Assembly: GCF_006345805.1 (NCBI RefSeq)
Contig: NW_021832432.1
Span: forward strand, 310,001 to 374,000
Direction: 5' to 3'
Length of the DNA stretch: 64,000 bases
Origin: Octopus sinensis
Lineage: Eukaryota
Below are positions 956-34,074 of this stretch, piece after piece. The translations under genes and the position numbers were made by a program. The first letter of the stretch is position 1; each line of letters starts with the position of its first letter. The notes beneath the pieces are model-generated. The model saw nothing but the letters and a program-made list of their open reading frames with translations, had not been told where the DNA came from and did not search any database.

Positions 956-1112
956 ATTACAAAAACTCAAACATAAGGTTTCTGTTAATAAATGGAATTT
1001 CATCAAGACAAAATGTAACTACTTACATTATCAAGCCGTTGCTGATTTTATCGATCAGTCTATACAAGAAATTGATGGTGAACCCCCACCTGCTATACCA
1101 CACTTAGATTTT
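956..1112 (+). CDS. Fer: Fer exon: end of FX coiled-coil region (LQKLKHKVSVNKWNFIKTKC...IQEIDGEPPPAIPHLDF)
   Basis: ttattcag|...TTT|gtaagt; DGEPPPA resembles the DGKEPPP segment of vertebrate Fer; ends in phase 0. Confidence 0.85.
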
Positions 1113-3142: not shown

Positions 3143-3274
3143 GATCCATCATGTTTGCAAGTTGGCTCTGGGGCTACATTGCTTAAAAAATTTAATTCCA
3201 TGCCTAATACATTAAGGAGGTTTGCTAGTCGAAGTACTTTGTTCAATATGAGTACAATAGATTACTCAGCAGAG
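3143..3274 (+). CDS. Fer: Candidate Fer linker exon A (DPSCLQVGSGATLLKKFNSMPNTLRRFASRSTLFNMSTIDYSAE)
   Basis: ttttttgcatttatttccag|GAT...GAG|gtaggt; 132 nt, open, phase 0/0; KKFNSMPNTL loosely resembles the vertebrate Fer linker SKFESIRHSI. Confidence 0.65.
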
Positions 3275-4599
3275 GTAGGTACTGGAAATGGAGGCAACTT
3301 GCATGATATCCTCAATTAGAATTACGTTCTGAGAAGCCTGCCTCTTCTAATATCTTTCATCTGCCAAGCGAATGGTAGGGAATCTCAATTTGAAATATTA
3401 ACTGCTTACTGTTAATGGATTGTAGGTCAAAGCCAAAATGTGATTCTAACTGAATTTTTGAATAATTTTTAAATAAACTTTGCTTGAAGTTGATCGTGCA
3501 GAGGAAATTTTAAAAAAATAATAATAAATATAAACTTGACAAAATATACCTTTGAATGTTTTGGTGTTATGTAACCAACAATATTAACTGCAAGTAACTA
3601 CAAGCTGAGAATTAAACGAATGGACTTGTTAAAATCAATTAATATCAATGATTTCGATGTGTTAACAGCTTTACTGGAGTTCTGTAACAAGTTGAACACT
3701 ATAACTCTCTGTTGTTTCATTTCTTATCTGTTTCTTCTGTGTGAAGACAGATTGCTAATAGTAACAACCTTTTTAAAAAGCAGCTGCTCAGACTACATAT
3801 AGTTGTGCTGTCTTTTACATAGCCTCTAGCTGCTTTGCCTGAAATCCTGTTATGAGATGGACTCTCAATGAGGTTAAATTACTACTACTGATGTTATTTT
3901 CTGTTATTTGTTATTAGTGCTGCTAACTAACATCTTCATTCTTTATTTTTCTCTTGGGATTATTTTTTTTTTTTTAGTTACTTTTCAAAACTTTTTTGAA
4001 ATACAAACATTAACATGTGAGTCTTTAAATAATTAAGAAATAAGATTATCAGCAGACAGGTATATTTCAAAACTGGAAGAATATTTTAGCAAAAAGCCCT
4101 TTAGCTACATCTGATACGACTCTAACAAAGCATTGTAACCAGGCAGATCTGGTTGCAGCTCTTGATAGTATCCATGGTTGCAGCTCTTGGTTGCAGCTCT
4201 TGATAGTATCCATGTTAAACTCCTGCTGCTACTTGACCCAGTAAGGTTCACTGCAACCATTATAAGGGTGTTATATGATATGAATAGGACATCTAATATG
4301 AGAGAAACCCATGAGGTATGAAGTTGGTATTTCTTGTAGAAATATATATATATATATAGAGAGCAGCACACCTGCTTCTTCCCTCATTCTTGATCACTCT
4401 CTCTCCCTCTCCTCTTGCTTTTCCCTATGGCTGGTTATTCTAACCTTTCGTCATCCGACACAAGATTACCTCCTCCAATGCCCCTGCCGCTATAGCAAAA
4501 CACCTGTTTCTGCTTCCCTGTACTTTCTGTCAGACTCTTATCTTTCATCATTTGATACAAGATCCCCTCCTCAAATGCCCCTGCCCCTCTCAAAATTCC

Positions 4600-4915
4600 T
4601 TGTCTTGCAAGTTACTTGGTGACCCTGCCAGTGCTGGTACCTCATAAAAAGCATCCAGTCCACACTGTTAAGTGCTTGGCATTTGGAAGGGCCTCCAGCT
4701 GTAAAAGCCATGCCAAAACTGATCTTGCCTGTGCTGGTGCCACGTAAAAATCATTCAGTCTTCTCTGCAGAGTGGTTGGTGTTAGAAGGACATCCAGCTG
4801 TAAAAGCCATGCCAAAACAGACACAGTGGCCTGGCATAGTCTTCTATCAGGTTGACTCCTGTCAAACTGTCCAACCCATACCTGCACAGTAGATGGATAT
4901 TAAATGATGATGATG
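4600..4915 (+). mobile_element. SINE-like element family C with (GAT)n tail; other copies near 6670-6800, 29920-30060, 30990-31115, 42840-42940, 57714-58190 (minus)
   Basis: Recurring gtgctggtgccacgtaaaaa..ggttggtgttaggaagggcatccagctgtagaaa..gtccaacccat..gttaaatgatgatgat. Confidence 0.75.
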
Positions 4916-5160
4916 ATGGGTAATTCTTCACTGTTTGCTTCACTGAATGGTAATATTATCTGGAGTGTATATTCGCAATAATTATAACAGTAGAGAATGT
5001 GGAAACTGGTACATCCTCAAAATATATTTCCTTTTATTTTACAATGTCATACAGCATTTTGAGGATGTACCAGTCTCCATATTTTCTATCATTATAATTA
5101 TTGCTGATATACACTCCAGATAATATAACGATTCAGTGAAGCAAATATGGAATTACCCAT
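4916..5160. mobile_element. Fold-back MITE with about 105-bp inverted arms
   Basis: at|gggtaattc..ctggtacatcctcaaaat / attttgaggatgtaccag..gaattaccc|at. Confidence 0.8.
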
Positions 5161-5956
5161 TGGAAGAATTTACAGCGTGACAACTCATAATAGTCATAGA
5201 TGTTTAATACTAATCAGTGCAGTTAGCCGTAATCTGGAACATGACAGAGAGCTACCACAGTATCCGCTCAGATAATATATCCCTCTAAACTCACACAAAT
5301 GTATGCATAGTTTTTTATACCTTGTGGTATTTGTTCTGCTTGAGTTACACAAAAGCTCCCATGTCACACATGCTGTCATAAATACAGTGAATGTATGTTA
5401 GAAAACTGTAACCAATACTGCTATTGTTCACATATTGTGATAGAAATATAAATAAATAACCTTAGCCATCATTGCTTGGGCTTGTAAACAATCAATCAAA
5501 ACTATACTAGTGCCATTTGTATGTCCAACATTCTGGATAGGAAAACGTGAGATTGAAAACAGTTTATTTATTTATTTATTCGATGAGTCACTACTGTTTA
5601 ATCTTTATTGTAGCCATACAGTGCTAAAATTTAGAATTTCACATTTGTGATTCTCTTTTTTTAACCCTTTTATCGCTATATCCCGGTTGAAATTCTATAT
5701 ATTGAATAAAATATGAAAATATTTTGAGGAACATAGATTAAATGACTCTATAGAAACTAATGTGCAACCAAAGAATAGATGTAAATTCTTGGTTTCTTTT
5801 GCATATACAGAAGCAGATGGCATTTTACTGAGTTTTTTTTTTTTTTCCAGAATTTTCTTGTCTTTAATTTTTATTTTCTATCTTTTTTCTCTCTTTCTCT
5901 CTCCCCTTTAGCAGCTCAATTTTTAAGGAATTACTGGAATGGTGCATCAATTTATT

Positions 5957-6124
5957 TATCGTATTTTAACATGTATAAGGAACCCTTTTTTGTCAAAGAT
6001 TAGATTTAAAAAATATAAGAGTTTCTCATACATGGATAGTATTATAATCCCTTACAAAACCTTTTTTTCCAAATTTTAAAACCCTGTAATTAGGGGGTTC
6101 CTTATACATGTTAAAATATGGTAA
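5957..6124. mobile_element. Small MITE, Tc2/Tc1-mariner-like termini
   Basis: TIRs tatcgtattttaacatgtataaggaaccc / gggttccttatacatgttaaaatatggta. Confidence 0.65.
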
Positions 6125-7213
6125 TTTTTATTCTTTCTGCCACAGAAAATTTCATGCTATGACCGTTTTCTCAAAAGAAAGCATTGTCTGCAAGTGTGCA
6201 TGTGAATCATTTTTTAGATGAAGGTTTTGTCTCTTCCGAAATACTGCACGAAGCTGCAGTTGATTCACTACAACAATATTACTGCTGCATTTGATAATAT
6301 TTATTTTTTTTCAGATATAATCTCTATTTTGCATTATTAGGTCATCAAGTGTGTATCTGATGTACATAGCATGTATTGCGTAGTTTTATAATGTTTGTAC
6401 TAATACATTAACAAGTATGTGTGTGTGTGTGAGTGTTGTATGGATGCAGCATGGCCACATAGTTCAAATGTTTGCTTCATAATCAAGTGCCTTTATTACC
6501 AAAAAAAAAAAAAGGAGAATGCTCTGAGTTTTCATCTACTTAGAAATGTAGGGATATTAAGAGAGAGAGGTGCAATTCTTAGTAGTACTAATTTAGCTAG
6601 CTTTGTGTTCCATTGTGTGTTTGTATATGTGTGTGTACATGTGTGTGCATGCACACACACACACATAAGATCTGTGGGTAAAAAAGTCCCTGACTTGAAA
6701 ACAAGTCAGAGTTGGCAACATATCCATCCATAAAATCCAACTTCAAAATCAATTCTCATCCAAATCATACTTGGATGGAAAAACGAATGTTAAAAATGTT
6801 AAATGAGCAAAAAAAAAAAAAACCCAGGTCACACACATAAACAAACACACAAAGAATATAGAACAACTTCAAAGTGCTCAAAACACATTTGTGTTACTGG
6901 GTGTAGATTCTAACATATGGATGTATAGCTGACTAAACCATGGAAACCAAATCAAAATGTCTTGCTAGTTTTTAGTAGTTCCGTAGTATCATTTAAATAT
7001 TCCTAAATTTTAGTTAAAATGAGTGACTAGTAGTGCAATGTTTTTTGTTGGGTGCTTTTTTTAAAATTTTGGTTTTTTATATAATTTATTCAGAAAAGGA
7101 ATAGCAACATCCATGACCTTTTTCCTGGGTTTTACTTCCCTGTCCACTCCTGTTGTTGTGATAATGGTTTTAGCTCTTCAGAACTAACTCCCTAAACTGG
7201 CCCTTCTCTAGAC

Positions 7214-7540
7214 CAGTGGTTCTCAACAGATGTTCATATGACATTGTGGGTCTCAGCTGGGGTCCATAACATTGTTGGTGTCCATGTAACAAAATAGTAA
7301 ATTGGGGATCACAATAGTATTTTAAGGACCCCTGCAAAAAATTTTGCTTTAGATGTATGCATTGGTATGTGTTGCAAGAAAAAACTAGGTTTCTTTCTCT
7401 AACATTTTACATAGTTCAACTTAGATGAGTTAATTCGGGAAAAACAAAAGAAAAATTTTTGACTGGCTATGAGGTTCCACCAGAATAAATTGTAATCAAA
7501 GGGGTCCTTAGATAAAATAAAAAATGGTTGAGAATCCTTG
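7214..7540. mobile_element. hAT-type MITE
   Basis: TIRs cagtggttctcaac / gttgagaatccttg; 8-bp TSD ctctagac / ctgtagac. Confidence 0.75.
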
Positions 7541-8095
7541 CTGTAGACCCTGCACTGTACATTTTTTGAAACTCCTTTTTTAATGGCTTAGTCAGTGGAA
7601 AAAGAGCAGTGTTGATGATCCTGGTGGGACCAAAGAAAGACATTATCCTTAGACTGGAGACCTACCCTGTTTACTTGCAACAATCATTCAGGGAGTTAAA
7701 GCAGGTGACAGATGAAGTCTATTGTCCTAAAACAAGAATGGGCCTACTGACAGGCCTCCACATACTTTATGGTTGTAAAATTTGCCCTACAAAACTGTGG
7801 TTGCTTTGATGCTATGCTAGAAGGCATTTGTCCAAATTGTGGCATCATGAGATTGAATTCAAACCCATGCACTTGTGGAGCAAACTTCTTAACTCCGCGG
7901 CAGTGTTTGCACTTGATAATATCTGCCTGGATTGCAATATACTCTGCCCTCATTTTCCTTGTGGGTGATGATTTACAGAAGTTCAAATTGAAACATAATC
8001 ACATCAGTCTCTAGAAGACTTAATATTATTATTTAAATATTTTTAGTGTAAGAAATCTTCTTCTTCTTCATCATCATCATAATAATAATAAATTG

Positions 8096-8311
8096 TAAGG
8101 TGGTAAGCTGGCAGAATCATTAGCACTCTGGGGAAAATGCTTAGCAGTATTTCATCTGTCCTTATGTTGTGCATTCAAATTCCACTGAGGTTGACTTTGC
8201 CTTTCATCCTTTCGGGGGTCAATAAAATAAGTACCAGTTGAACACTGGGGTCAATGTAATGACTTACCCCTCCCCCCAAAATTACTGGCCTTGTGCTAAA
8301 ATTTCAAACCA

Positions 8312-8395
<84 letters not shown>

Positions 8396-9860
8396 CATTA
8401 TTATTTTAATTATTGAGTGAGAGAGCAGTGCATGCCATCAAAGTGACACTGGGGTAAAATATACAAAGCCCAGTATACCCATCATGACTACCCATCTGAT
8501 AAGGGTACACCAGGCACATGCATCACAGCCAAATATGTGTAACATGGTAATCTCATATCAAGATAAACAGTGCATGACCTTGCAGGTGGGGCCCAGTTAG
8601 AATTTTCTTCTGGTCGAGTAACCCATCCCGCTCAAGAGGTCCCTGAATAAGGGTTGTTTAAGGATGTTGAATGAAACACCCATTTTTCCAGAAGTGAATT
8701 ATTCAAACTTCTAAGAATTCCTTCCAGCACACGGCTATGATGCTCCCCAACTACTTCTGCTCGTGATCAAAGATGCACATATCGTCAGCCACTAAGGGCA
8801 TGCTCAACTGGTCATGGTCAAACAACTGAGAAACAAATCTGTGGTATTGATCAGAATATTTGCTACAGCCCATCTTTTATACCAAGACAAAACAATGTAC
8901 ATGATAACATTTACAATCAGTTAAGATCAGCAGCCACGAGAGCCATGCATCAGGGCATTTATTATTATTATTGTTATTATAAAAATTGTAAGGTTGCAAG
9001 CTGGCAGAATCATTAGCAGGCCAGGTAAAATACTTAGTGGCATACATCCAATTGTACATTCTGAGTTCCAATTTTGCCAGGGTTGATTTTGCCTTTCATC
9101 TTTCTGGGGTCAATAAAATATGTACCGGTTGAGTTCTGGGTCAATGTAATCAACTTACCCCTCCCCCGAAATTGCTGGCCTTGTGCCAAAATTTGAAGCC
9201 ATTATTATTTTAAATTGTAATGGGAGTATAGGGGATTGATCAAATTATAAGAATAGTGGACAACATACCTTACTGTATTCATTCCGTCTCTTTCCTTTCT
9301 GGGTTCAGATTCTGCTGAGGTCAACTTTAATTCTCTTGGCGTCAGTAAAATATAATACCAATGAAATACTGAGGTAGATTTCATCAACTGGTCCCCTCTT
9401 CACAGTTTTTGCCTATGTTAGAAATAATTATTAATTGCAAAAGATTGTGGATGTTAAAAGTAGGAGAATGCCAGATCAAATTTTTTGTGGTGGTTACTTG
9501 TCTTTTTATTACATGATTTCATGTCTCAATGACGCTGACAATGTTCTTTTTTTTTTTTTTTGTCCCTAGGGTAGCGATAAATAATATTAATCAAATACTG
9601 AGAGAAATAATATTAATAATAATTATTATCATTGTTATTGTTAAGGTGGCAAGCTGGCAGAATTGTTAGCACGCCGGACAAAATGCTGCTAAGCATTTCA
9701 TCTGTCTTTACATTCTGAGTTCAAATGCTACCAAGGTCAACTTTGCCTTTCATCCTTTTACGGTTGATAAAATAAGTACCAGTTGAGCACTGGGGATCAA
9801 TGTGCTAGGCTTACTCCCTCCCCTGAAATCCTGGCCTTGTGCCAACATTTGAGACCAATA
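8096..9860 (+). mobile_element. Cluster of tRNA-derived SINE family A copies (8096, 8989, about 9230, about 9440, 9643) with (ATT)n tails, plus an unclassified 560-bp repeat (8413-8960) inside the ATT tract
   Basis: ggtggtaagctggcagaatcattagc..gagttcaaattc..gactttgcctttcatcctttcggggtcaataaaataagtaccag..ggccttgtgccaaaatttgaa(att)n. Confidence 0.85.
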
Positions 9861-10177
9861 TTTTTATTAGTATCGTTAACAATTTCTTTAATATATTCAC
9901 TGATTGATATTTTTTATTTGTCACAATAATTATTTTAATTTAGACTCTTTTTCTAACCTTCAGAGATCAGGAAATTCTTTCCATTTATATTTTTTGTTTT
10001 TGCATTATGATTAATCATGCTTTTAACTTAACACAGCCTTCCAGGGAAAAAAAAAGAAAGAAAAGCCACATACTATTTTTAGTATGTTGAATGCTTATTC
10101 AAAAATCAAGTGAGAAAGTCTATTCTATAGATTCCTTTTTAAATGAAAGCTTAATTTCGCTGCTCTCACATGTTCAG

Positions 10178-10381
10178 GATGGCACTTCAATGGTATCAGC
10201 AAGTTCTTCACAAACAAAAGCCAGATGGAATATAACAAATATTTTCAAAAGTCTTGGTGGTAACGTGATTTCCACACCATCTCCAGATAACACTGAGAGC
10301 AAACAAAACCAAAACCAAAACCAGAAACAGAACTATGAAGAACAGTTTGATGTTAAGGGTGTTGAAGAATACAATGGAGAG
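10178..10381 (+). CDS. Fer: Candidate Fer linker exon B (DGTSMVSASSSQTKARWNITNIFKSLGG...YEEQFDVKGVEEYNGE)
   Basis: ctctcacatgttcag|GAT...GAG|gtgaga; 204 nt, open, phase 0/0; DGTSMVS resembles vertebrate DARSVTS, which follows EPPP. Confidence 0.75.
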
Positions 10382-11999
10382 GTGAGATTTCTATTTAAAA
10401 CCAAACCTTTTTCGAACTAGCTTTTACTGTCTGTCACATCACAATTGTTTCCATTTTGGTTGTTTCTTCTATTTATTTCAATTTAATTATTTTAAAATTA
10501 TTTCTTTATATATTAGTTATTCTCTCATTAATGTCAAGTTCACGAGGATCCAGTATTTTAGCCTTTGTTTTCGTTTTTGATTGGAGTCATTTTATTTCAT
10601 TTACACTGTTATAAAGATGTCTTGGGAAAGCACTTAAATATTTCAATCATTTTTGGGGAAAAAATTTTTTTAAATCTCCAGTTTTGGATCCATTTGAGAA
10701 TGTAATGATTTCTTTTACATATAAAGGGTTTCTTTTTTTTTCTGTTCTAAACATGCATGAAACTATAATGAGTCTATCTGAAAACATATATTTGGTTTAA
10801 AAAATTAATTATGATTAATTATCTGTATTTAAGAACAGTGCTTTAAGCAAATGTCTTGACTGAGTCAAATAAAGATGCAGTCTTTATTTATTAAGCTGTG
10901 ACACCTGTTATTCTTGTTTAGCTATGATTGAATAGAACTATAATCAAAGGCATTCCAAACACGACCATTTTGTCTTTCTAGATGTTTCCAGGATTACATA
11001 ATTTGATTATCCTTTCCAGAATATAATTTGGGGCAGATATGGCTACTATTTATAATAGGTTGACTATGTACAAACTTCCTTGTTGTTGGCTCATAAGGCG
11101 TGTTTGGAGTTCATCATTGTTATCATCAAATTATATCATAACAAGGAACTTTGCATTGTACAAGTCTATTGCCAAAGAATGCAGAAAAGTTGTTTAAAAA
11201 AAAGTTTGAAAAGAAAAATGGTGATGGTGGTGGTGGTTGCCGCCGTCGTCGTCATGGTTGTGGTGGTAGTCATTGTAGTAGTTGTTTCCTGCTAGTATCA
11301 GAGTACAATTTATGGAGGGGGGACCGTTTAAAAATGCCCTCATCCCATTTTAAGCTATTTGACATTATATGCTTTTTCTGGTGGAAAGAGGATTGGTAGA
11401 ATCAACTGAATGAGAGATAAAATGCCCTCTGGCATTTGGATGCATAGTTTTACGTTCTGAGTTCAAACTCTGTTGAGGTCAACTTTACCTTTCATCCTTC
11501 AGAGTAGGGAAACAGGTTTGATAAAATAAATACCCGTTGAGGGCTGATGTCAATGTAATCATCTTTACTTGTTCCTCACAGTTTAGGCCTTGTAATTTTG
11601 TTTGTAACTAATATTAGATACTTCGGAACAAATAAATGTAGTATGATTAATATATTCCGGCTTTATCCCATTCAAATATGGAATAAACTGGTTTGCTGTA
11701 AGGAAGAGAAATTATGTAGCATTTTAAGCAATGCTCTTCATTTATTATAACCTCTCACCCATCCCACCCCCTGATGAGGTGGGTACTGTCTTGTGGCCCA
11801 AAATCTATAGGTTGTATTAATTTAATCAACATCCTTAGGTCATTTTGCATATTGTGTCTCCATTTAAAGTATGGTCAGAAGATATGTCTGTTAATTGAAT
11901 AGACAAAGCTATATCCAAACTCACTTTCTATATAAACCTTCACTTTTATTTAGGTATTCATTATGTGGACATCATACATTCGGTGGTGAATGGATAGTT

Positions 12000-12310
12000 T
12001 TTGATTATATGATTGTAGTCGCTTGTAGTCCAAGGAAGACAGTCCTACAATTTCTTTCTATAGTCCTGCACGAATAATTTGTTTACAGTGATCAAAATTT
12101 TGTGTGATATAAGCTCACTTCCCCTCATCAAATTAACATTGCCTGAACAGGTGTATGGTGTACCACATGTCAGATGTTGAAGTGATTATAGAGTGGCATG
12201 AGATGTAGTGCTTTGCTCAAGAACACAATGCACCACATAGTTCAAGAGTTGAAACCACAGTCTCATGATTGTGGGTACAAACACCGTAACCACTAGGCCA
12301 TGTACACTCA
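12000..12310 (-). mobile_element. tRNA-derived SINE (family D-like), minus strand
   Basis: Reverse complement reads tggcctagtggttacggtg..gtggtttcaactc..tgtgttcttgagcaaagcact (A/B boxes plus CORE-like block). Confidence 0.65.
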
Positions 12311-13362
12311 CTTTTGACTTTTATGTATAGTGAATAGCTTTAGATAATATCTTTCCAGTTACTGTCCACATAATACCTCTTATAAGCTGTATCACAAACC
12401 AACACTGAAGGATGTATTTGTTCACTTTAAATAAATTGAAGCCAAATCCCCCTCAAATCACACCATTGCTTACTTAAGCTCTTCTCTTTGCTCTTTATGG
12501 AGCATAGGCTTTCTATGACTTTTCCCCACTATTCTCACCTCTGAGTTGTCAGAGCCACTTACTCAGTGTGGGTGAGGGGCACCATATTTTCCATGAGGGA
12601 AGGCCTTTCTCTCCCAGGTCTTGTTGGTTTTGAATTGTAATCAATGGTTCTGTAATCTGGCTTTTTTTGTGTAAGTGGGGCTGATGACTTTATTGCAAAC
12701 CTTTTTTGGGGTGGGGGGGTGGGGAAGGTGATCCTTATAAGTCTGGCCTCTATTATTTGATTTGTCTAGCATAGAAGGCCCTACTAGGAGCTTGTGATCT
12801 GTTGGCATAGCTCTCAGAGTGACTGAGGAACATAAGCCACCACACTGCAACAAGAACTAAACCTTGTGGTGGCAAATCATATCATACTGTCTTTAAAAAA
12901 AAAGTGTCAAGGGGGCACAACACATTTGATAATGTAATCCTAGATATACTATGTCTCAGAAAGAAAAAAACTAGATGGTCATGACTGGAATGCCTTTGGT
13001 CTTCAGATTTTACAATTAGGGTTGACCTATTAAACAGAAACAGTCTGTATCAAATTGACATTTGTAAGCTGTGTATAATAATTTTCCATCTCTTACTAGT
13101 GTCTGTTAATGTTTTAGTCATTGACTGTATCTATCTATCCAGTCAATGTCTGTGAGTCTTTCCCATCCAATTGATGGCATGAAGACTGTGGTTATCAGGA
13201 GAATTCCTGTCAGTTGAAGAAGGAATTCGAGTTGGAGTCATTTTGAAACATACTTATTCATTAGTACCAAGATCTGCCAACATATGGTTTGGTGATCATC
13301 TCTTTAAGTATCTTCATAACTCTGGTTTTTGTTTTTTTAATCCTAAATACTATATTATAAAT

Positions 13363-13437
<75 letters not shown>

Positions 13438-15409
13438 GTCTATGTAAATCTACATGCATTCATATGTGTAAAAAGATGCATAAACAATTCTATATCCCAT
13501 TTTTTGTGTTCCTTGCAAAGTCATTATCTTTTTATATTCCCATTTTGCTCAGATGCAACTATTTAAGAATACTTATTTCACCGAGTTAACAAGAGTTGAA
13601 ACAAACACGCATTAAACACACACACAGACACACACACACATACATACATACATACATGCATATGAAGGCTCTGTTTTCTAACTGCACATGTTTAGTGGTG
13701 AAAATGATGAAGAGAACCACTCATTAAGCACATATCACAGACATATTAGAATACCACCTCAACCTAAATGTTGTAACTTATGAATCAGCTGTAGGATTGG
13801 GTTTTAAATTACACTGCACACAAAGTATTGAATGACCTGACAAGCATTACCAATGCAAGGAGGGAGTTGGAGAAGGCACATAATTAAATTTACAGATTTA
13901 AATCTATAAAAAAAAAATGTCAGAGACACTGAACATTAATTGCTATTTTTTGTTTGTTTTTTATTTTTATTCACATTCTTCTTTTATCTTATCTTCTTCT
14001 TCACTATTACATTGTTATATTGCATCATCTGTCGTTTGACTCAAGAATGATGCCTCTGGGTGGTTTATTGTTGTTATTATTGTTGCACTGCAACTATATA
14101 TGTGATTATTGTTATTTTTGCTTCGCTGCCAATGTGGTGTTTTTCTTTTTCTTTTTTTTTTTTGTACTACCTCAGACTTAGCAACTGGGTTGGTTTTTTT
14201 TTTTTTTTTCAGGTCACACACATAGTCTAAGTGTGGAGTCATATTGTTTGTTTAGTTAGAAAGAACAATTTTGGCATTTGATATAGTTTTACCCCCTTTT
14301 TTTTTCCCTCCCCATCTCTCATTCTCTCCATCTCATCTGAATGAGATTTCCCTAGTATTTCCTAATTTTAAGACAAAAATGATGAGAAATGAAAAATAAA
14401 ATTTAAAAAATTTTTTTATATTTTGTGGGAAAATGTCTATGAGCCATTGTTAGAACAGAAGTGTTAACTTGATAAATGGAAGGGATTAAGAAAAATATTA
14501 TATTATGGAAGGTTTTTTTTTTTTTTGTTTCTTTGTTTTATTGGATTAGGGTTAGATTTCACTCTGATGATTAAAATTTGATTTTTGTTCCTCTTTGTTT
14601 CAAAGGATTTTGTTATTTTACCTTTCCCTCTCACTCATTAATCGAGTTAATTTGATAAACAGTTAAGTCTTTTCAAATCTTACGTGAAATGTATGGTGGA
14701 AATTTTAGAGCGAGTGATAGAAATTCCTTGTAAGCTTACAGCTTTGTTGGAAGTGTTCACTGTAAAGTCTCGTTAATAAATAAACAAGGTGTCATATATA
14801 TGATACTTTGTGGAATTAATGTTGTTCTTTCTCTCTCTTTTAATTCATGATTCTCATTCTCTCTCTCTCTCTCTTTCTCTCTCGTGCTCTCTGTGTTGAA
14901 ATCTTGACCTTCTCAACAACTGCACGTGTAATTGATTGTTGCAGCATGCATATAAACTAGCATGGAATCCGTTTCCGAAGCATGTATTCACTTCAGCATT
15001 GTGCTTGCATGTTTTCCTTCAAATTCTAATTGAAAATAATAATCTTTAATACATTCTTTTCTCTTTGATTCATTTGAATTTTTTTTTTCTTTTTCTTTTA
15101 AATTTCTATAGGCAGTTTAGCTGCAATTTTTTTTTTTTTTTTCTGCAAAAACAAATTTCGGTTTTAGTATTTGCCTAAATCTTTAGTTCTTACTGGCAAA
15201 TTTGTATTCTTACTTTACTTTAATTTCTTTTTTTATTTTATTTTCTATATCTTGTATTCATTCATATGCTTTCTTTATAATCTCTTTCTCTCTGAAATTC
15301 TTTCCTTTCTTTTGCCACATTCACACATACACAGATATGTACATAACAAACACAAGATTAATACATAACTCACACATACACATTCTTCATCTTAAGAAAC
15401 TGTAATTGA

Positions 15410-16640
15410 AATACATCTCATAGTGCTGCACCAGAAATCTTTCCCCCATTAGTTTTGTTAGATCCTTAATATCACAATGTGTGTCTTTGCCAACAACATC
15501 AATGCAGAAGTTTCCAAAATTTAACATTTGATATAGTGTGTTGTTAAGTATGATAGTAGTGGCCAGCAAAGCCTACTCTGTTTTGAGCAACAATAGTAGA
15601 GGTAGGAATAATGTATCCGAGTGCCTGTGTGGTAAGTAGCTTGCTTACCAACCACATGGTTCTGGGTTCAGTCCCACTGCGTGGAACCTTGAGCAAGTGT
15701 CTTCCACTATAGCCTTGGGCCTACCAAAGCCTTGTGAGTGGATTTGGTAGACAGAAACTGAAAGAAGCCCATCGTATATGGGTATGTGTGTGTGTATGTT
15801 TGTGTGTCTGTGTTTGTCCCCCCAACATTGCTTGGCAACCGATGCTGGTGTGTTTATGTCCCTGTAACTTAGCGGTTTGGCAAAAGAGACCGATAGAATA
15901 AGTACTAGGCATACAAAGAATAAGTCCTGGGGTCGATTTGCTCGACTAAAGGCGGTACTCAGCATGGTCGCAGTCAAATGACTGAAACAAGTAAAAGAGT
16001 AAAATCTCTCTGGTCTTGTGCTTATGCCATGAGATGTTTTTAAGCCATCATGAGAAGCATTGTATATGTATCTTGAAAGTGATCATGAAGCTTTTTTTTC
16101 TGTCCAAGTTTCAGCTTCATTGAAAAGAATGCTTCCTACACATGTTGGGAAGAAAGCAAATCTTGCTCACTTCGGAATACATATATTACCATTAGATGGT
16201 TTGGAACTTGTTACAGGCTCTTCAGGTTGCTCCCCTGTGTATAAGGAAATCTTTCTAACTGTCAGCAACATAGGAGTCAAAGTATTTGAAAGCACTAACT
16301 TCTCTGAACTGTGTGCCTTCATTGCAACAAATTGGCTGGTGGCTTTCATCTTCATTGATGGTCATGCATTCAATTTTCTTTATATTGAGAGACAGACTGA
16401 CTTTGGTTGCAGTATTCTCAAGGGAGGCTAGCATGTCTTACACATATGTAACTTCCTTGCGCTTCTGTCATCAGGTTAACAAATGACCTGTTGTAACTTG
16501 ACAAGCACTTGCCACTCTGATTGATCTTGATCACTTCTCAGCTGGTAGTAAATGGGTTGTTTTATGTTATTAGCTCATTGTTTATGTGATCTTCTACACC
16601 AACGAATCCTTGGGGTACTACCAAATATGATGGTTCATTA
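15410..16640 (-). pseudogene. Degenerate RTE-like LINE fragment (RT C-terminus/thumb), interrupted by a SINE
   Basis: Minus-strand translation pieces LENTATKVSLSLNIKKIECMTIN, VSAFKYFDSYV, RACNKF, KNISWHKH, RVGFAGHY, IDVVGKDT; stops and frameshifts. Confidence 0.7.
15619..16003 (+). mobile_element. SINE family B (tRNA head, CORE-like block, central (TG)n); further + copies near 18045-18455, 21580-21740, 33057-33400, 37608-37997, 41155-41495
   Basis: tgtgtggtaagtagcttgcttaccaaccacatggttctgggttcagtccca..accttgagcaagtgtctt..cagcatggtcgcagtcaaatgactgaaacaagtaaaaga. Confidence 0.85.
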
Positions 16641-18819
16641 AGGGCTATTGAGAGGCTGATGGTAAATATTGTTAAAATCTAATGTAAATATCAGATTTGT
16701 GGGTCATCCAGAGCATATCTTACAATGTTTCAAAATACCGTAGTGTTTTATATTATAACATATCTTAATGATGTAATAAAAATACCCTCTGATCACTGTG
16801 GTAATGACGACGACAACACTGATGGTGATGACAATGATGATGATAGTTTTGATGTGCATATGAAGCTAAAATGATGATGATAATGCTGCTGCTAGTTTAG
16901 TGTTATATATAATAACATACTTTAGTGTTTATAATAGAAACTCCCTCTATTACAATGGTGGTAATGTTTATGTACATAAGATACTGTACATAAGGTACTC
17001 TACAAATATAAACTGTAAAGTAAATGTTTAAAATTTTTTTTATACCTAGCTTAGTCAGAGGAGGAAGGGCTGTGCTCATGGCCGTTTTTCAGGACCACTA
17101 GGACTGGTGGGTTGGAAGAAAATTGTTTCTCTTCAGACCAGAAATCTAGCCCCAAATGCTTCCTACAGAATGCACTCTGTCAATGGCACTCAACGACCAA
17201 ATGGTAGTAGCATTAAACTGGGTGACAGATTAAGTCTAACACATAAGAACATGAACAGTCTCTTAAACAAGCTCACATAATCTCTGTCTTAGAATAAAAC
17301 TTTTAAACTTCTGAAACTAATTGTAGAAGCATAAATACATTTTATAAGCTATTGCTTCAGTATTTGCTAGAGCAGAAAAAGAATTAGTTTAGCCTCATGA
17401 AAGAAATAATAATAATCTTATAGTTACAGAGAATAAAATAACTTCCTAATGACACAGGGGAATCACAATTCTCAGTACCAGATGCAGGGGTCTCAGGTGG
17501 GTGTTCATTCCATAAATAGATCAAATTGATTTCTGCATAAACCTATAGCAGCTTATAAAAGCAGTAGCGGTGTTTATCTGTGATATATCCCGAATGTCAG
17601 TAAGGTGTGAAAATAGGTGGTAGAAGCCATATGGAAGGTATTTATTAGAATATATAAAAAAAAAATCTATTGTTACTTGAGAACATTATGTAGACCATGA
17701 GAAATAATATTTCCAAATATCTATCCTGTTTTAGAATAGCTTTGAAATTGGTAGAGAGCCAGTACATTTATGGCATCTTGTTCCAATACCGCAGTGTTTT
17801 GAATTTACATCTTGTCTGGGTTAATTACTTTTTATTATTTCCAGAGCTGTTTATAAAATGTGTACTAATAATACTAGCAATAAGCTAGTGTTAATTCAAT
17901 TGAATAAGTCTCCACCAACCCTACAAAATTTGCCCTATAATAAAAAGAAATTATTATAGAAATGTACAATGAGCTTGTGCTATTTTCTTGGTGGCAATTG
18001 GAAAACTGAAGCAACAATAAAAATTGATTATTCTGTATTATATATACAGGCACAAGTATGAATGTGTGGTAAGAAACTTGCTTACTAACCACATGGTTCC
18101 AGGTTCAGTCCTGATGTGTGACACCTTGGGCAAGAGTCTTCTACTATAGCCTTGGGCTGACCAGCACCTTGTGAATAAATATGGTACACAGAAACTGAAA
18201 GAAGACTATATACATGTGTGTGTCTTTGTGTTGCAGTTTGCTCCCCCCACTACCACCACCACTGCTTGATAACTGATGTTGTTGTGTTGACATCCCTGTA
18301 ACTAAGCAGTTCAGCAAAAAAGACTGATAAAATAAGTACCAGGCTTTAAAAAAAAAAGCACTGGAGTTAATTCATTCAACTAAAACTTCTTCAATGTAAT
18401 GCCCCAGCATGGCCACAGTCTAATGACTGAAGCAAGTTAAAGATAAAAGATAAAAATATTATCTTTGCAAATTTGAACAAGTTCATACACAATGGAGAGA
18501 CAAGGGTCTTCGTTTCAAGCAAAGCCTTTTGTTGCAGAAAGAAATTATTTGAAATGTTTATGGTAACATTGAAAATAGATTTTTTCTTTGTTCCTCTCCA
18601 ATGGACCCTCTCTCTGCAACATTCAAACTATTCATATTTTTGAATGATGTTCACCAACAAGGACCACTATTAGTTTTCTCAAACTCTGAGTTGTATAATA
18701 AATTATATACTAACTTCAATATCTTTTGACAGTTTCTCAAAGTGGTTTGAAGGAGAAAATGAGCAGTGCATTCATTTATCATGTATGGTCATAGAACTGG
18801 TTCTAAAATAAATAATGGC

Positions 18820-19215
18820 ATCAAATTTTGGCACAAGGGTAGCAATTTTAGTGTAGGGTTAAGTTGATTACATTGACCCCAGTGCTCAACTGGTACTTAT
18901 TTTATCAACCCTGAAAGGATGAAAAACCAAGTCAACCTAGGCACTTAGCGATATTTCGTCTGTCGTTAGGTCCTGAGTTCAAATTCCGCCGAAGTCGACT
19001 TTGCCTTTCATCCTTTCTGGGTCGATAAATTAAGTACCAGTTACGCACTGGGGTCGATGTAATCGACTTAATCCCTTTGTCTGTCCTTGTTTGTCCCCTC
19101 TATGTTTAGCTCCTTGTGGGCAATAAAGAAATAAGAATTTGAACTCAGAATATAAAGAGCCAAGAGCCAGAATAAATGCTACTGTGTGCCAGCCATTCTA
19201 CTAATTTTCTGCCTT
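18820..19215. mobile_element. Minus-strand family A SINE split by a younger 5'-truncated plus-strand family A SINE (18944-19134)
   Basis: Old copy reads through gtcaacctaggca|..|gaatttgaactcagaa; insert ends ..gtgggcaataaagaaataa. Confidence 0.85.
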
Positions 19216-20398
19216 ACTTTTAGAATAAGGATGACAGAACCAGAATAGATTTCATGGAATAATTGAATAGCTCTTAAATTTATGAAAACAACTACAAACG
19301 GATCTAACTGCTTGATAATCTGACCATTACGAACCATACTTTGATTTTGATTTAGCTACAAAAGAGGAAGGAAGGGGTTCAGGCAGTATTTCCTAAGCTT
19401 GTCTGAAATCCTTCTATCTACTTTGGTAACTGAATCAAAATATGTTTTTTCTTAGTCACATTATTACTCAATTTGTAGTTCTTTTCATAAATTTAAGAGC
19501 TATTCAGTTATTGAGTATCTTCATTGATGAACTAGAAATAGAAAAATAAATGTTAAAATAAACTATTAAAGGCTAGGATAAATAATTATGTGCTTTATAT
19601 ATTTTGATAATTAATTATGGGATTTATATATTTTAATAATTAATTATGGGATTTATATATTTTAGTAATTAAAGTCACCATCATCATCATCACTATCAGT
19701 GACATCATTATTTTTATATCCACTCTTCTGTGCTGTCATGGAATGGACAGGACATTTCAGGCAATGGTTTTACAGTTGGCCATTCTTCCTGACAACAACC
19801 TTTTTCAGTCATCTCTTACAGTATGCAAGGTTACCGTGTACCTTATCTACACAAAGTGTAAATTATAATAACAACTTGTGGGGTGTGGTCACTAGTTTTA
19901 GTGTTTTCAGTGTAATTAACAAAACATTGTTCTCACACAAATATTGGAAACTATTTAGCAAAAGTAAATGTCAGTTCCTTGAACAACAAAAAATAGACCA
20001 CACTAATCTAGAGAATGTTATTTCCGTAAGATTTTAGTTCATGATGCTATTAATATAGAGATCTACAGATTATGGTTGTTTAGTTATGAAAAAAAAAGCT
20101 TATTGGTGTCAATATTATTCTCCTGATGAGTTTCAGTACAAATGTGAGTGAATGTGTGTGTGTGTGTGATTAGTGGTGGAGTTGTTGATTTAATAACCTT
20201 CAGATTCTCCCACATAAAACTGCAGCAGTAGTAAGTCTAAGAATTCTTTGCTTTGCATTAAAATATCTCCCAATGATTCAGGTTTTTCTCTGGGTGTGTC
20301 ATTTTGGTAAAAGTTCAAGTTTGTATCAACAGACACATCTAGACATAGGGAATTTAATGGAACCTGTATAGAGATATTTCTTTGTGTTTATGTATATC

Positions 20399-20463
<65 letters not shown>

Positions 20464-21194
20464 ATATTATATATATATATATATATATAGATATATATAT
20501 ATATATATGCATTTTAAGTTTCCTAGCTTTAATTTATCACCACCTCTTTTAAAATTGGAACAGTTTTCATTTTTGCAGATAAATTCACGAGGAAAAGTAG
20601 TAATTTCTTCATAGAGTAATTATCATAATTATTTTTATTGTTATCAATGGATTTTTTTATTTTCTATTTCTCCTTACCTGAATTCCATTACAAAATGTGA
20701 TTGATGCAACAACTTCATTCATAACTTGGAAGTATTTCAAAGTTGTTACAAAATTTACTGTAGCTGAAAGCTCTTGTTCAGAGCTTCCACTCAACCATGA
20801 AATGATGGGCGTATATGTATACAGTCACATACATGCAGACATACACACATATCGTAGTAAATGTATGTATAGGTGTATATGTGTATACACTCTCTTACTC
20901 CCCAGATACACATATAAATGAAGATGTAGACATACTATTATCAGGGATACGGTTAGATTGAATAATTGGTGTCTGTGGAGAGAACAATAAAATAGCTAGG
21001 TTTAGGTGATGGATATAAAGATAATCTTAACCATTTGATAAATAGGTATTGATAATATAAATACCAGAGTAATGGAGTCAATATGATTTAAGGTTGTATA
21101 ACTACTGCCCAATGACTGAAAATAGTAAAATAACAAAAACTGAGTGGTAGAAAGAGCTGAACAATGTACTAAGAGTGTTTCAGTCATCTATGTT

Positions 21195-21580
21195 CCTCCC
21201 AATAATGGTTGTGTCTCATATTAATTACAGAATTCATGTGGTACTGTTCCAGCCAGAGAATACCTTCTCTATTTAGGGTGTTCAATATTTCAGGCCAAAT
21301 TCCTCCCTTTTCAGTGGCCTTGCCACATTTGGGCACTTTAATTACCTATATGACTTCAGCCTCTGTGAAGTTAGCCTTTGTCCCTAGATGCACCTCATGT
21401 TTACCAGATTTTATTGTGGCCATATTTACTTAGAAGTAATTATTCTTCTGAGCAGTTCTGAGGTTGTTGGGGCTTACACCTTTAGCCAGTTGTAAAGAAG
21501 ATGTATTTGAGATTCTCAGCCATAGGCTTTTGTTTCTTGAAGCCTAGAAATATCAGTATTACTCACTTAAAATCGGTTTG
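21195..21580 (-). pseudogene. RTE-like LINE fragment, same family as 27690-29620
   Basis: agagaataccttctctattta..gccacatttgggcactttaat..tatgacttca.cctctgtg.agttag also present at 27961-28070. Confidence 0.65.
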
Positions 21581-22355
21581 TTTACATCCCCATAAATTAG
21601 AGGTTCAGCAAAAGAGACTGATAGAGTAAGTGCCAGACTTAAGAAAAGAAGTTCTGGGGTTGATTTATTCAATTGACCCTTCAAGGCATTGCCTCAGCAT
21701 GGCCGCAGTCCCATGTCTGAAACAAGTAAATGATAAAAGAGTTGCTTGTCATTCTCTCCATCAAAAATGCGATGAATGAGAGATTGACCAATTGGCAAGC
21801 TTTAACTAACAGCGGTGTTGTTTACTTAGGATAAAAAAAAGGAGAAAAACCATGTGAAGTAATGTCATTTCATTTTTTCCCTTCTCAAAATAAAGGACTT
21901 TGGTTTTAGTCTAAAGAAAGCAATACTTTAAGGATGTTATAATGTAGTGAATTAAGTGAGAAACCATTGAAGCATTAAGTACTTTTTTAAAAGAAAACAG
22001 TATTATGGAGATTGTAGATTGACTTGTCTCCTTTACTGCTCTTAATTTATTGATTCTAAAGGTATGAATGGAAGAGGTTTTGGTGCCACTGATATTCTTT
22101 GCAAATTCATAAGTCCTTCGGATTTTTATTAAAAGTAGTTAACAGCTAACATTTCAATAGTTAACTTAGAGTTTAATCTTTGCTTTATCCAAAAAGCAAT
22201 TTTTAGAGCCTCCCTACCAACATACATTACTCTTTCTGTCAGAGGTTTTCACAAAGCTGTAAAAAGCTAATTAACCTGGTAAAATCATTGGAATTCATAA
22301 ACAATTTTGAATTCAATGGGAAAATATTTTTTTATTTATTTGTGTGAATGGGGAA

Positions 22356-22403
<48 letters not shown>

Positions 22404-22860
22404 AGGGTGTGAATGGATGTGACTATCTAATGACAAGACTAATGTCTTCATACTAATCTGACTTTGAAGAAGTAAAGAATTTATGTAGAGGTACACGTTG
22501 GCACTACACACCAAACATAACATGAATAACTGTCATTTGGATGTAAAATAGCATAAACATTAATAGCTCTTCCAATCAAACTTCCTTCATATATCTGGAC
22601 AACACAATTCCCTCTTGTTCCTCCCTTTGCCTTTGTTCCTTGGCTTTCCTCTTTTTCGCTTCTCTTCCTATTTTCCCTTTTCTTTTTCCTTTCCTATGGT
22701 TCTTCCCTACCTACCTGCCTCCCTCCTTCCCTCCCTTCTTATTGTCCCTTCTTCCCTCGTTTCTGCTCCTCTACTTTAAACTGTATTTCCTACTATTTTC
22801 AAGCTACATGGTTTAAGTATGCATGAAGACAATGATCTGAGGCTTGTTTTTCTTGTCTAG

Positions 22861-23058
22861 GACAGCTCCTCTTCAGTAGCATCCCTCTCTTCTTATCTGA
22901 GAAGGTCACACGTCAATCTTTCCAAGAACACCAACAGCAGTTGGTTGAAAACATTGCATACTACTACCGGCCGAGGTCTGGCTGAGAGAAACAAGTGGGA
23001 GTGTTACGAGGAATCAAGTGTGCGGAAAATAAGCCAGGATTTGGGCAATTTTAATGAG
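22861..23058 (+). CDS. Fer: Candidate Fer linker exon C (DSSSSVASLSSYLRRSHVNLSKNTNSSWLKTLHTTTGRGLAERNKWECYEESSVRKISQDLGNFNE)
   Basis: ttgtttttcttgtctag|GAC...GAG|gtgaga; 198 nt, open, phase 0/0; compositionally complex island between long pyrimidine tracts; missed by the ORF track. Confidence 0.65.
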
Positions 23059-25854: not shown

Positions 25855-26052
25855 ACTGCACCAGTCAGCCAAAGATTAGAAGATGAAGAATGGTTTCATG
25901 GAGTTCTTCCTCGAGAAGAAGTACAGCGTCTTTTAGTCACTGATGGGGATTTCTTAGTTCGTGAAAGTAAGAACAAGAAAACAAATGAAGTTTTGTATGT
26001 ACTTTCTGTTTACTGGAATGGTCATAGACATTTCATTATTCAAACAAAAGAG
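25855..26052 (+). CDS. Fer: Fer exon: SH2 N-terminal part ([39 protein letters not shown]...HFIIQTKE)
   Basis: ctgtccag|ACT...GAG|gtatgt; WFHG and [10 protein letters not shown]2 motifs; 198 nt, phase 0/0. Confidence 0.96.
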
Positions 26053-30281: not shown

Positions 30282-30458
30282 GAGGGTTGGCATTTGGAAG
30301 GTCCCACTTTTCCAACCATCCAGCATCTCATTCATAATCAGATGACTAAAGGACAGCCTGTTACAAGTAAATCGCAAGCAATTTTGAAAAATCCAATTTT
30401 AAGAGAGCCGTGGGAATTGAAGAATGATGATATTCTTCTTGATATGAAAATTGGCAAT
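30282..30458 (+). CDS. Fer: Fer exon: SH2 end and kinase start (EGWHLEGPTFPTIQHLIHNQMTKGQPVTSKSQAILKNPILREPWELKNDDILLDMKIGN)
   Basis: tctttctttag|GAG...AAT|gtaagt; 177 nt, phase 0/0. Confidence 0.96.
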
Positions 30459-30482
30459 GTAAGTATTCTATCTTTTATCTTT

Positions 30483-30911
30483 TAGTTGTTTTGGTCATTT
30501 GACTGTGGCCATGCTGGGGCATGACCTTGAAGAGTTTTAGTCAAACTAACCGACCACGGAACTATTTTTTTAAGCCTTACACTTATTCTATTGGTCTCTT
30601 TTGCTGAACCACTAAGTTACAGAGATGTAAACACACCAACACTGGTTGTTAAGTGGTGGTGAAGGACAAACACAAACACAAAGCCACACACTTATATGTA
30701 TATATATGTATGACCGTGTGTGTACCATTGGCGATATTTTTTTCCTCCATCTTCCCTTCTCTAGATCTTTCCTTTTCCTATGTTTCTGACGAAGAGCTCC
30801 GCTCTAAATGTAAAACCCTCCTTCTTCCCTTCCTTCCTGAGAGTCCAATAATACTATATTTGTTCCACGTCCTCGCATTGTTGTGTTTTCTCTGTGTTTT
30901 CGTGTTTGGAT

Positions 30912-30972
<61 letters not shown>

Positions 30973-31272
30973 ATATATAAATGTATCTGCTGGGTGGTTG
31001 GTGTTAGGAAGGGCATCCAGCTGTAAAAATTCTGCCAAAACAATCACAGAAGTATGGTGCAGATTTCTGCCTGGCCAGCTCCTATGAAGGCAGACGTTAA
31101 ATGATGCTGATGATACATCAGGCTTCTTTCAGTTTCCATCTACCAAATCCACTCACAAGGCTTTGGTCGGCTCAAGGCTATAGTAGAAAACACTTGTTCA
31201 AGGTGCCACGCAGTGAGACTGAATCCGGAACCATGTGGTTGGGAAGCAAGCTTCTTACCACACAGCCATGCC
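30483..31272 (-). mobile_element. Minus-strand family B SINE whose central microsatellite hosts nested inserts (30716-30915 element, (TA)n, family C fragment)
   Basis: Two halves, 30483-30690 and 31118-31272, are the reverse complement of the family B pattern. Confidence 0.75.
30716..30915 (+). mobile_element. Short (TA)n-associated element with decayed hammerhead-like core (Penelope/retrozyme-like)
   Basis: CTGACGA-A-GAGC-tcc-GCTC-TAAATGTA at 30786-30812; homologous to the reverse complement of the 39077-39625 units. Confidence 0.55.
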
Positions 31273-32796
31273 TATTGAGAAACATTTCAAAGTATTTTCA
31301 AATAAGTTTTGCTAAACTGATTTTGCAGGCTTCCATGCTTGACATCTAAAGCTTTTCACGTGACATACACCATTCCTGAGGTAATTAGAAGTCAAAAGGC
31401 TGAATTAGTTCAATCAAGGAATATGACTTTCCAAACCCTTGACCAAAACAGCTTAGACCACATGGAAAATTGGCTAAGAGGTGAATCTCCCATCTCTATG
31501 AAGATATAGAGCTATCTCTCTCAACAAACAACAAGCAGAGCAGAACATCTGGCTGCTGAGTGTTGTAAGAGAGTGCAAAGACACCAAGAGGACAAGTAAC
31601 TGAAGTATGACAGTAAATCCAGACACAGTCATTGGTATGGGATTGCATTCTTGCAAAAGACATATTACAGACTTAGTTTTGATACAGTGTACCTGGGGAA
31701 AACTCAACTTCGCAGAGTTCATCCCTCTCTCCAAGTTGTACCCACGAGGAAAATTAAGCACAGCCCTGGAAACAAATGAATATTGTTGTCGATTTACAGT
31801 GCTGCTTAAGGTGATGAGTGAGCTGGCAGAATTGTTAGGATGCTTTATTTTCTGAGTTCAAATTCTGACAAGGTTGATTCTGTCTTTCTTCCTTGATAAA
31901 ATAAGTACCAGTTAATAACTGGGATCGATGTAATCAACTTACCCACTACCCCCCCAAACATGCTGGCCTTGTGCCAAAATTTGAAAGCAATTTATAGTGC
32001 TGCTGCTACTTACATCAGTAAGTTGTTTTATAGCATGCTGAACTGAGTTGTTGAGTGGTAAGGGTTGTCTTGGATAAAAAAAAACCACCAGATTTTCAAT
32101 TTGGTGCTATGAGCCCTACTCTATTAACTCATCCTTCTCTCTAGTTAATCTGTAGGCTGCAAGGATTTTCTCCTCTCTACTTCAACAAATATGATGAAAT
32201 CTATGGTTTTACTGAGGAGGCCTAATACGACCAAAATATGCCTGGAGTTGTCTCCCATACATACTAGAATAATTATAAGTCTTTAAATAATACTGTCATT
32301 TCCTCACTGTATGATTATTTCTAAATAGTTTTTTAATGCTCACTGCATTAAAAATATTAATTTTAACTTGATTATATGATATAGTAGTTGGCATCAAGTA
32401 TTCATCTCTTAAAAATTCTCCAATAGATTGTGCAACTGTTCAGTTTATAGACAGGTTTCCACCCTACTCCTTTGAAGTGTGATTATTCATAGAGAAATAT
32501 GATTAATACATATAATTTATAGAGTAAGTCTTTTCTATTTATTGCATACCAGCTGTATAAAGACTTTAGTCAACTAATCTTTGGTACGTGGCCACTAAAT
32601 GATAAGTCCCATTTTGAGAGATCTGAAGAACTTTTCTAAATGATTGAATTTGTTAACTGGAACTACCTATGCTATGCATTACATAGAAAAGGTGACATAA
32701 ATGTCTCTAAATTGATGTTTGTGCTTTAACACATAAATGTATGTAATTAGAACATTTGTATGATGTTAAATATTTTTGTCTTTTTACTTCCTTCAG

Positions 32797-33010
32797 GGTA
32801 ATTTTGGTGAAGTGTACAAGGGTAAATATAAACCAGAAGACAAGGTGGTAGCAGTAAAAACATGTCGAGATAGTTTAACCGAGGAACAACGAAAAACCTT
32901 CCTGCAAGAAGGACGTATTCTAAAACAATACGATCATCCTAATATCGTAAAATTCATTGGCATTGCAGCCCAGAGAAAACCTGTCATGATTGTCATGGAG
33001 TATGTTGAAG
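32797..33010 (+). CDS. Fer: Fer exon: kinase subdomains I-V ([25 protein letters not shown]...[30 protein letters not shown])
   Basis: ttccttcag|GGT...GAA G|gtaagg; GxGxFG split across exons; VAVK lysine. Confidence 0.97.
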
Positions 33011-33557
33011 GTAAGGCACTTAGGATTATTATGAAAAAATTTTAAAGACAAAATATTGGCTGTATGATTAAGAAGCTTGCTTTGCAACCATGTGGTTTTG
33101 GGTTCAGTCCCACTTCACAGCATCTTGAGCAAATGTCTTCTACTATCAGCCCAGGCTGTCACAATACTTTGTGAGTGACTTTGGTTGATGGAAACTATAT
33201 GGAAGCCAGTCATGTATGTGTGTCTGTGTTTGACAACTGCTGTTGGTTCCATATCCTCATAACTTAGTGGTTTGGCAAAATGGACTCACAGAATAAGCAC
33301 CGGACTTTAAAAATTAGTACTGGGGGTCAATTGTTCAACTAAAACCCTTCAAGGCAGTGCCCCAGCATGGCCACGGTCAAATGACTGAAACAAGTAAAGG
33401 AAGACATATGTATACAAATGTGTGTATTCATAATGCATATTAGTGTTACAAGAATGGAACCTTATTCTTCCAAGAACTGCATGTGCTTGTGTGTGTGTGT
33501 GTGTGCATGTGTGTCTCTTTTACTAAAGTATAATGATAACAGATCTTTACTTTTAAC

Positions 33558-33915: not shown

Positions 33916-34074
33916 TGATTAAAATATTAAAAAAATAAGATTTAATATTTACACTTTAATTAATTTTACTGACCCCCTATCCAGTATGTCCACTTCCATT
34001 AGTGACCATAACTATATTTTTACCTGACTGTCACTTTATCTAATAATTATTATTTTTGCTTTGTCTTTTGTCAG

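Follow-up and report, generated by a model that had tools for sequence, protein, structure and literature searches.

Three probable in-frame cassette exons, joined in several combinations, between the FX and SH2 regions of an octopus Fer kinase gene

The tyrosine kinases of the Fes/Fer family share one domain order (F-BAR, FX, SH2, kinase), which the octopus Fer gene described here keeps, differing by three stackable cassette exons, A, B, and C, which add inserts of 66 to 178 amino acids to the linker between the FX region and SH2. The exons lie in the window, a stretch of 64,000 nucleotides from Octopus sinensis (RefSeq assembly GCF_006345805.1, contig NW_021832432.1, positions 310,001 to 374,000), in which an earlier note, made from the sequence alone, had proposed a mutually exclusive exon cluster exchanging this linker. 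The tandem clusters of mutually exclusive exons (MXEs) treated by Hatje et al. in 2017 (PMC5740500) resemble B and C in length, phase, and weak homology, but the octopus locus differs by its in-frame, exon-joined forms, its unfolded region, and the nonhomologous A. The cassettes described by Buljan et al. in 2012 (PMC3437557) likewise keep the frame, are predicted to be disordered, and bring short conserved motifs, along with candidate sites of modification, into signaling proteins; they are tissue specific, and the octopus set differs in that two of its cassettes are probable paralogues. In mammals, isoform variation just ahead of SH2 is likewise known from FerT (PMC10049441), and FER is autophosphorylated at Tyr402 (PMC10276154); FerT, however, starts at a promoter within an intron and is devoid of the F-BAR domain, which the octopus isoforms keep. 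TNK1 is controlled by MARK and 14-3-3 via a Ser outside its kinase domain (PMC8429728), and cassette A has a MARK consensus, but TNK1 belongs to a different kinase family and the parallel to Fer is an analogy only. Among the other lophotrochozoan Fer proteins examined, there is one main B-like segment, accompanied in some by small extra cassettes. General background is found in PMC9013439 for exon duplication and in PMC11311543 for Fes/Fer domains; our literature search, which reached few subscription papers and no supplements, turned up no account of Fer linker splicing in cephalopods or other invertebrates.

In our judgment, it is likely that A, B, and C are tandem in-frame cassettes in a linker predicted to be disordered, used in several combinations and tuning the kinase via linker length and phosphorylation motifs. 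We tallied the cephalopod Fer proteins that span the linker (n = 23), namely, 17 octopod proteins and six proteins predicted on Logan contigs of 2.9 to 3.7 kb; P0169 and P0170 (intron read-through), P0171 (a gene model in which C is reduced to its 3' part), and P0172 (unlike cephalopod proteins) were left out, and one search feeding the tally was seeded with C, with a resulting bias toward C forms. The combinations were ABC in three proteins, BC in five, AB in four, AC in four, B alone in five, and C alone in two. Each cassette is therefore present in some proteins and absent from others (A, 11 and 12; B, 17 and 6; C, 14 and 9), with the frame kept throughout, which agrees with the alternative use proposed in the earlier note; mutual exclusion, instead, is contradicted by the 16 of 23 proteins that join two or three cassettes, and the idea that single cassettes are interchangeable is contradicted by the absence of any protein with A alone. 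All three in series, which the earlier note had named as the outcome that would speak against it, occur in annotated isoforms, in 3 of the 17 octopod proteins; the remaining octopod proteins are BC (five), AB (three), AC (three), C (two), and B (one), and the Logan-contig proteins are B (four), AB (one), and AC (one). In RefSeq, isoforms X1 to X5 of O. sinensis correspond to ABC, BC, AB, AC, and C, and X1 to X4 of O. bimaculoides to ABC, BC, AB, and AC.

The A+C form (P0018) and the A+B form (P0132) are each full length on single Logan contigs of 2.9 to 3.2 kb, so that the A-to-B and A-to-C joins, being on single assembled contigs, point to real spliced reads. Three of the Logan-contig proteins were placed on a tree, where they group with a cuttlefish protein in a coleoid clade supported at 100/100, their own branch receiving 89/88. 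It is hardly conceivable, in view of these forms, that the three exons are a single mutually exclusive cluster of duplicates with one per transcript: their similar sizes, common phase, Asp start, and Glu end, together with the seven proteins carrying B or C singly, agree with such a cluster, but all 11 A-containing proteins have B or C after A, A is not homologous to either, and the A-to-B and A-to-C joins would have to be artifacts not only of two RefSeq annotations but also of independent assemblies.

The identification of the gene as Fer was confirmed by Pfam, tblastn, and Protein Data Bank searches, which gave F-BAR/FCH, SH2, and tyrosine kinase in that order; FCH (PF00611), SH2, and kinase domains are precomputed for the full-length proteins, and the closest solved structure is human Fes SH2-kinase (3BKB; E = 1e-124). 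For the three cassettes, the earlier note had correctly given the coordinates collected in Table 1, the lengths of 132, 204, and 198 nucleotides, the open frame 0, the AG acceptors, the Asp first codons, the donors GAG/gtaggt (A) and GAG/gtgaga (B and C), and the phase 0/0 of each exon; the FX exon, ending at 1112, and the SH2 exon, starting at 25855, are both in phase 0 as well. The Asp start and Glu end of the cassettes partly mirror the splice consensus AG/G and AG/gt. All three are deemed real exons, since their peptides occur letter for letter in RefSeq O. sinensis Fer proteins, and the claim that they stand isolated in the 24.7-kb gap between FX and SH2 was borne out by a splice-site scan of positions 1113 to 25854 (custom weight matrices, thresholds of 3/3, at least 45 nucleotides). 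On the sense strand, phase 0 returned exactly A, B, and C and phases 1 and 2 returned no candidates; the antisense strand returned 1, 0, and 1 candidates over the three phases. Across 60 block shuffles of the scanned region, the mean was 0.05 candidates of at least 120 nucleotides and three were never reached, and a looser scan added six weak candidates, none of which was seen in any octopod protein linker. No Pfam family was above the cutoff for A, B, or C, and the ESM Atlas held no usable match for A.

Table 1. Features of the Fer locus, numbered by position in the window
Feature	Position	Strand	Remarks
Fer exon, end of helical FX region (ends ...EPPPAIPHLDF)	956..1112	+	Phase 0 donor gtaagt; in all 23 tallied cephalopod proteins
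Cassette A, 44 amino acids	3143..3274	+	Coleoid only in this analysis; two L-x-[RK]-x-x-S motifs, Ser19 and Ser29
TGCATG, 26 nucleotides downstream of A	3300..3305	+	Rbfox-type, activating position; lead only; P within 50 nucleotides ~0.02 (post hoc)
Cassette B, 68 amino acids	10178..10381	+	Orthologue of single lophotrochozoan linker segment; 0/300 shuffles for 4/4 B versions
TGCATG, 41 nucleotides upstream of C	22820..22825	+	Rbfox-type, repressing position; lead only; P ~0.02 (post hoc)
Cassette C, 66 amino acids	22861..23058	+	Carries YEE/YDE; probably arose as a tandem duplicate of B and then diverged
First SH2 exon	25855..26052	+	Phase 0 acceptor; PF00017, E = 3e-11; tblastn
Six further Fer exons (rest of SH2 and kinase)	30282..45510	+	tblastn of P0007; PF07714 on two of six
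Approximate spans of those six exons	30282-30458, 32797-33012, 34074-34199, 36624-36779, 41633-41770, 45373-45510	+	

The cassettes might also be taken for exons with which the coding sequence of short SH2-kinase isoforms can alternatively begin, on the model of mammalian FerT, which starts from an intronic promoter ahead of SH2 (PMC10049441). In-frame Met codons in A and B and a snail-type protein of 400 amino acids that begins inside the linker (P0168) are consistent with such starts, but the FX exon is joined upstream in 23 of 23 proteins, all three exons have good acceptors, and the four matches of a search for shorter proteins included no such spliced octopus form, which makes this reading very unlikely.

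No mechanism that would enforce exclusion is evident at the locus. The introns measure 2030 (FX-A), 6903 (A-B), 12479 (B-C), and 2796 (C-SH2) nucleotides, all have GT-AG ends, and every exon length is a multiple of three, so that a steric limit, a U2/U12 splice-site mismatch, and a frameshift, which are among the exclusion mechanisms in Hatje et al. (PMC5740500), can be ruled out. In 21 complementarity tests of the 300-nucleotide flanks, carried out on the DNA of one species and blind to protein-based regulation, we found no shared complementary docking or selector site; one of the tests stood at 0/100, but its match is AT rich and gapped and was rejected. An AT-rich candidate from one of six tests of flank similarity (2/200) was also rejected. 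The earlier argument from length, according to which one exon fits the linker and the sum does not, fails against a survey of 47 non-cephalopod lophotrochozoan linkers, which range from 23 to 159 amino acids with a median of 95, the octopus B-only form measuring 83 by the same ruler. In an AlphaFold model of the ABC form (57 sequences), the predicted local distance difference test (pLDDT) score is below 50 at residues 410 to 591, that is, over the whole linker, which sits between the confidently modeled helical F-BAR/FX half and the SH2-kinase unit, and the FX-SH2 linker is predicted to be disordered. Cassette exons favor disordered regions and MXEs favor folded domains (PMC5740500). In these tests, the locus behaves as tandem cassettes in a disordered, motif-bearing segment and not as a three-member mutually exclusive cluster.

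The origin of the cassettes was approached with a linker profile built from 45 of the 47 surveyed linkers, the short forms P0036 and P0060 being left out. All four B versions scored above 300 of 300 shuffles, and B is deemed the ancestral linker segment since the profile of other lophotrochozoan linkers recovers all of them; the features that it has in common with the lophotrochozoan segment are a Ser-rich start, a basic-aromatic stretch, and a YE motif. The match of the profile to A was weak (8 and 1 of 300 shuffles). Reciprocal profiles of B and C were exceeded by 1 to 23 of 500 residue shuffles in seven of seven tests, the squid/cuttlefish-type versions of both cassettes share LFKS and NY[ED]EP, and, as judged from sequence comparison, C is probably an old diverged duplicate of B. 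The profile tests detected no significant homology between A and B or C, save one test at 16/500, so that the proposal of ancient exon duplicates holds for B and C, as a probable pair, and not for A. In the DNA around B, about 90 nucleotides of upstream intron (window positions 10091 to 10177) are nearly unchanged when translated in P0169, a related-octopus read-through of B, which may reflect plain species closeness or a conserved splicing element.

Between octopus and squid/cuttlefish-type proteins, the identity is 77% for A (34/44), as against 48% for the constitutive FX exon, and falls to 38% for B and 29% for C. RNA editing as the origin of the differences in A is not supported, only 2 of the 10 differences fitting A-to-G. 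The 3' part of C is also found in the cuttlefish gene model P0171. Linker skipping is widespread in protostomes, as isoform differences in clam, caddisfly, beetle, snail, and ribbon worm indicate: in Mercenaria, Arctopsyche, and Anoplophora, one isoform of a pair skips a linker segment of 62, 67, or 57 amino acids, respectively, that ends 12 to 13 amino acids before the SH2 WxHG, which is the position of the octopus cassettes, and Pomacea and Lineus isoforms show smaller linker inserts. A linker cassette already skippable in protostomes (B) would then have been duplicated to give C before the octopod/decapod split, and A would have been gained separately as an extra cassette. This split is placed at roughly 270 million years. 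Gastropod linkers (P0035, P0165, P0167, P0168, the Pomacea cluster, and others) display apparent further small cassettes, among them a 10-amino-acid YEQ piece and a NGP..M..MRE.G piece, and one contig gives a protein of 445 amino acids that is devoid of the SH2 WxHG and one of 400 amino acids that starts in the linker.

With regard to motifs, the cassettes carry different candidate phosphorylation sites, as the earlier note had suggested. Cassette A has LKKFNSMP (Ser19) and LRRFASRSTL (Ser29), the latter an exact instance of LXRXXSXXXL, and the distant version of this motif reads LKKFASRSNL. LXRXXSXXXL is given as the MARK consensus in PMC6890249. Both A motifs co-occur in 0.2% of shuffles, a figure to be read with the fact that the pattern was chosen after the sequence was seen. 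Of the individual motifs that had been singled out, RRFAS of A is kept as KKFAS, but RRS of C is not kept in squid/cuttlefish-type proteins; similarly, the YEE shared by B and C is kept in four of four B versions and as YEE/YDE in C, but the shared N-(G)-E end is missing from squid/cuttlefish-type proteins. The C cassette of Argonauta begins with Glu and not Asp. Of the 47 non-cephalopod linkers, 37 contain YE, whereas after shuffling 3.8 did so on average and 8 at most. A further motif, PF[KR][KRS] (often NPFKK or KPFRR), is present in 14 of the 47 lophotrochozoan linkers and in the skipped beetle and caddisfly cassettes (P0020 to P0066, insect Fer), and is possibly a basic-aromatic membrane- or partner-binding motif.

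We can envisage how such cassettes might work. The choice of cassettes would set the linker length, the count of Tyr-Glu sites, and the presence of a Ser phospho-switch. B and C each contribute one Tyr-Glu site, which would lie no more than about 25 to 30 residues ahead of the SH2 exon, and the tyrosine, once phosphorylated, would be a candidate for binding to the SH2 of Fer itself or to another SH2, so that carrying one or two YE sites could set the ease of SH2 engagement. No protein in the tally is without both B and C (0/23), a form that, at 784 amino acids, fell within the length range searched, and the reason may be that each of the two supplies a Tyr-Glu site. Inclusion of A would provide a Ser site of the MARK/AMPK type and, possibly, a 14-3-3 site, placing the A isoforms under Ser/Thr kinase control. 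The FX-SH2 linker of human FER presumably contains Tyr402, again followed by Glu. Human FER autophosphorylates this residue (PMC10276154), and in human Fes a ligand on SH2 stabilizes the active kinase, the SH2 domain binding a pYEPV peptide (PMC2572732). A doubtful alternative is that the cassettes are plain spacers, which vary only length and charge and whose motifs are incidental; the fast divergence of B and C and the wide span of linker lengths are in keeping with it, but A is better conserved than its constitutive FX neighbor with both Ser motifs intact, and YE is retained in linkers that have otherwise diverged.

Several points weigh against the reading of A, B, and C as freely combined cassettes with working motifs. 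Of the Fes substrate preference, the YE sites match position +1 but not the aliphatic residue at -1 (PMC2572732), and the clam and insect isoforms drop the whole cassette, so that some Fer proteins can evidently do without a YE site. Part of the reason for the linker's low pLDDT is a shallow alignment with few rows there. C has no match to the linker profile (35, 70, and 247 of 300 shuffles), and the B-C similarity is exceeded by as many as 1 to 83 of 500 block shuffles, the DNA similarity being marginal (27/500). The RefSeq isoforms are predicted models, the two O. sinensis loci, at 99.5 to 99.8% identity, are not independent, and the BC models of O. vulgaris and Argonauta may be homology derived. 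B+C occurs only in gene models, in 8 of the 17 octopod proteins as opposed to none of the six Logan-contig proteins, and B and C may, given the latter transcript-type proteins, be largely exclusive in practice.

This last point leads to a reading that we consider unlikely, in which A is an independent cassette and the duplicates B and C exclude each other with some leakage, most transcripts taking one of the two and the B+C form being minor and over-represented by gene models. Exactly one of B or C is present in all six Logan-contig proteins, the two are probable paralogues, at least one of them is found in every protein of the tally, and a TGCATG upstream of C could repress C; yet B+C is found in octopod proteins of four species, barriers of steric, frame, or splice-site type are absent, and six proteins are a small sample from assemblies that retain dominant paths. 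Rather than as such a pair, we prefer to regard B and C, together with A, as tandem cassettes.

The two TGCATG elements near A and C (Table 1) were noticed after the fact, and none of eight constitutive exons has TGCATG within 50 nucleotides. A downstream Rbfox site is activating and an upstream one repressing (PMC11874969). On this basis, one could imagine, as a speculation that we hold to be improbable, a two-layer switch in which an ancient B/C duplicate pair, of which one member or the other must always be included and which would be mutually exclusive in squid and cuttlefish but less strictly so in octopods, sets the number of SH2-binding phosphotyrosines, A serves as a coleoid-specific MARK/14-3-3 module, and one Rbfox-type factor turns A on and C off through the flanking TGCATG, giving an A+B kinase in nerve or muscle.

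Since RefSeq already lists the A/B/C isoforms and disordered linkers commonly contain cassette exons, a hidden mutually exclusive cluster falls as a finding. The Fer FX-SH2 linker appears, instead, to be an old site of alternative splicing across protostomes (clam, snail, ribbon worm, caddisfly, beetle, and cephalopods) that expanded in coleoids, where it combines a conserved YE motif with a strongly conserved optional Ser-motif exon. It offers natural variants for probing how the SH2-kinase unit is coupled, through this little-studied linker, to the half of Fer that binds membranes, and B and C, as probable duplicates, would provide a case of duplicated exons that stayed short of strict exclusivity.

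A second copy of the locus was found at G000:C12431:132900-159000 (L001-L003), 99.5 to 99.8% identical over 26 kb and with the three cassettes exact; it is probably an uncollapsed haplotig. In RefSeq it figures as a second gene, with models that start at a different N terminus (713 to 825 amino acids). A repeat scan of window positions 946 to 26100 gave microsatellites and dispersed repeats, none of them tied to the cassettes. Positions 24537 to 25639, in the intron directly ahead of the SH2 exon, hold a degenerate repeat of about 58 to 61 nucleotides in seven copies, and positions 34685 to 35250, in a kinase-domain intron, a 30-bp minisatellite of 18.8 copies that is the source of long spurious open reading frames. 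Finally, a 159-bp tandem repeat (3.9 copies, 95% matches) occupies positions 309 to 945 and ends just before the FX exon acceptor, its earlier copies ending in a pyrimidine run plus AG and resembling decoy acceptors.

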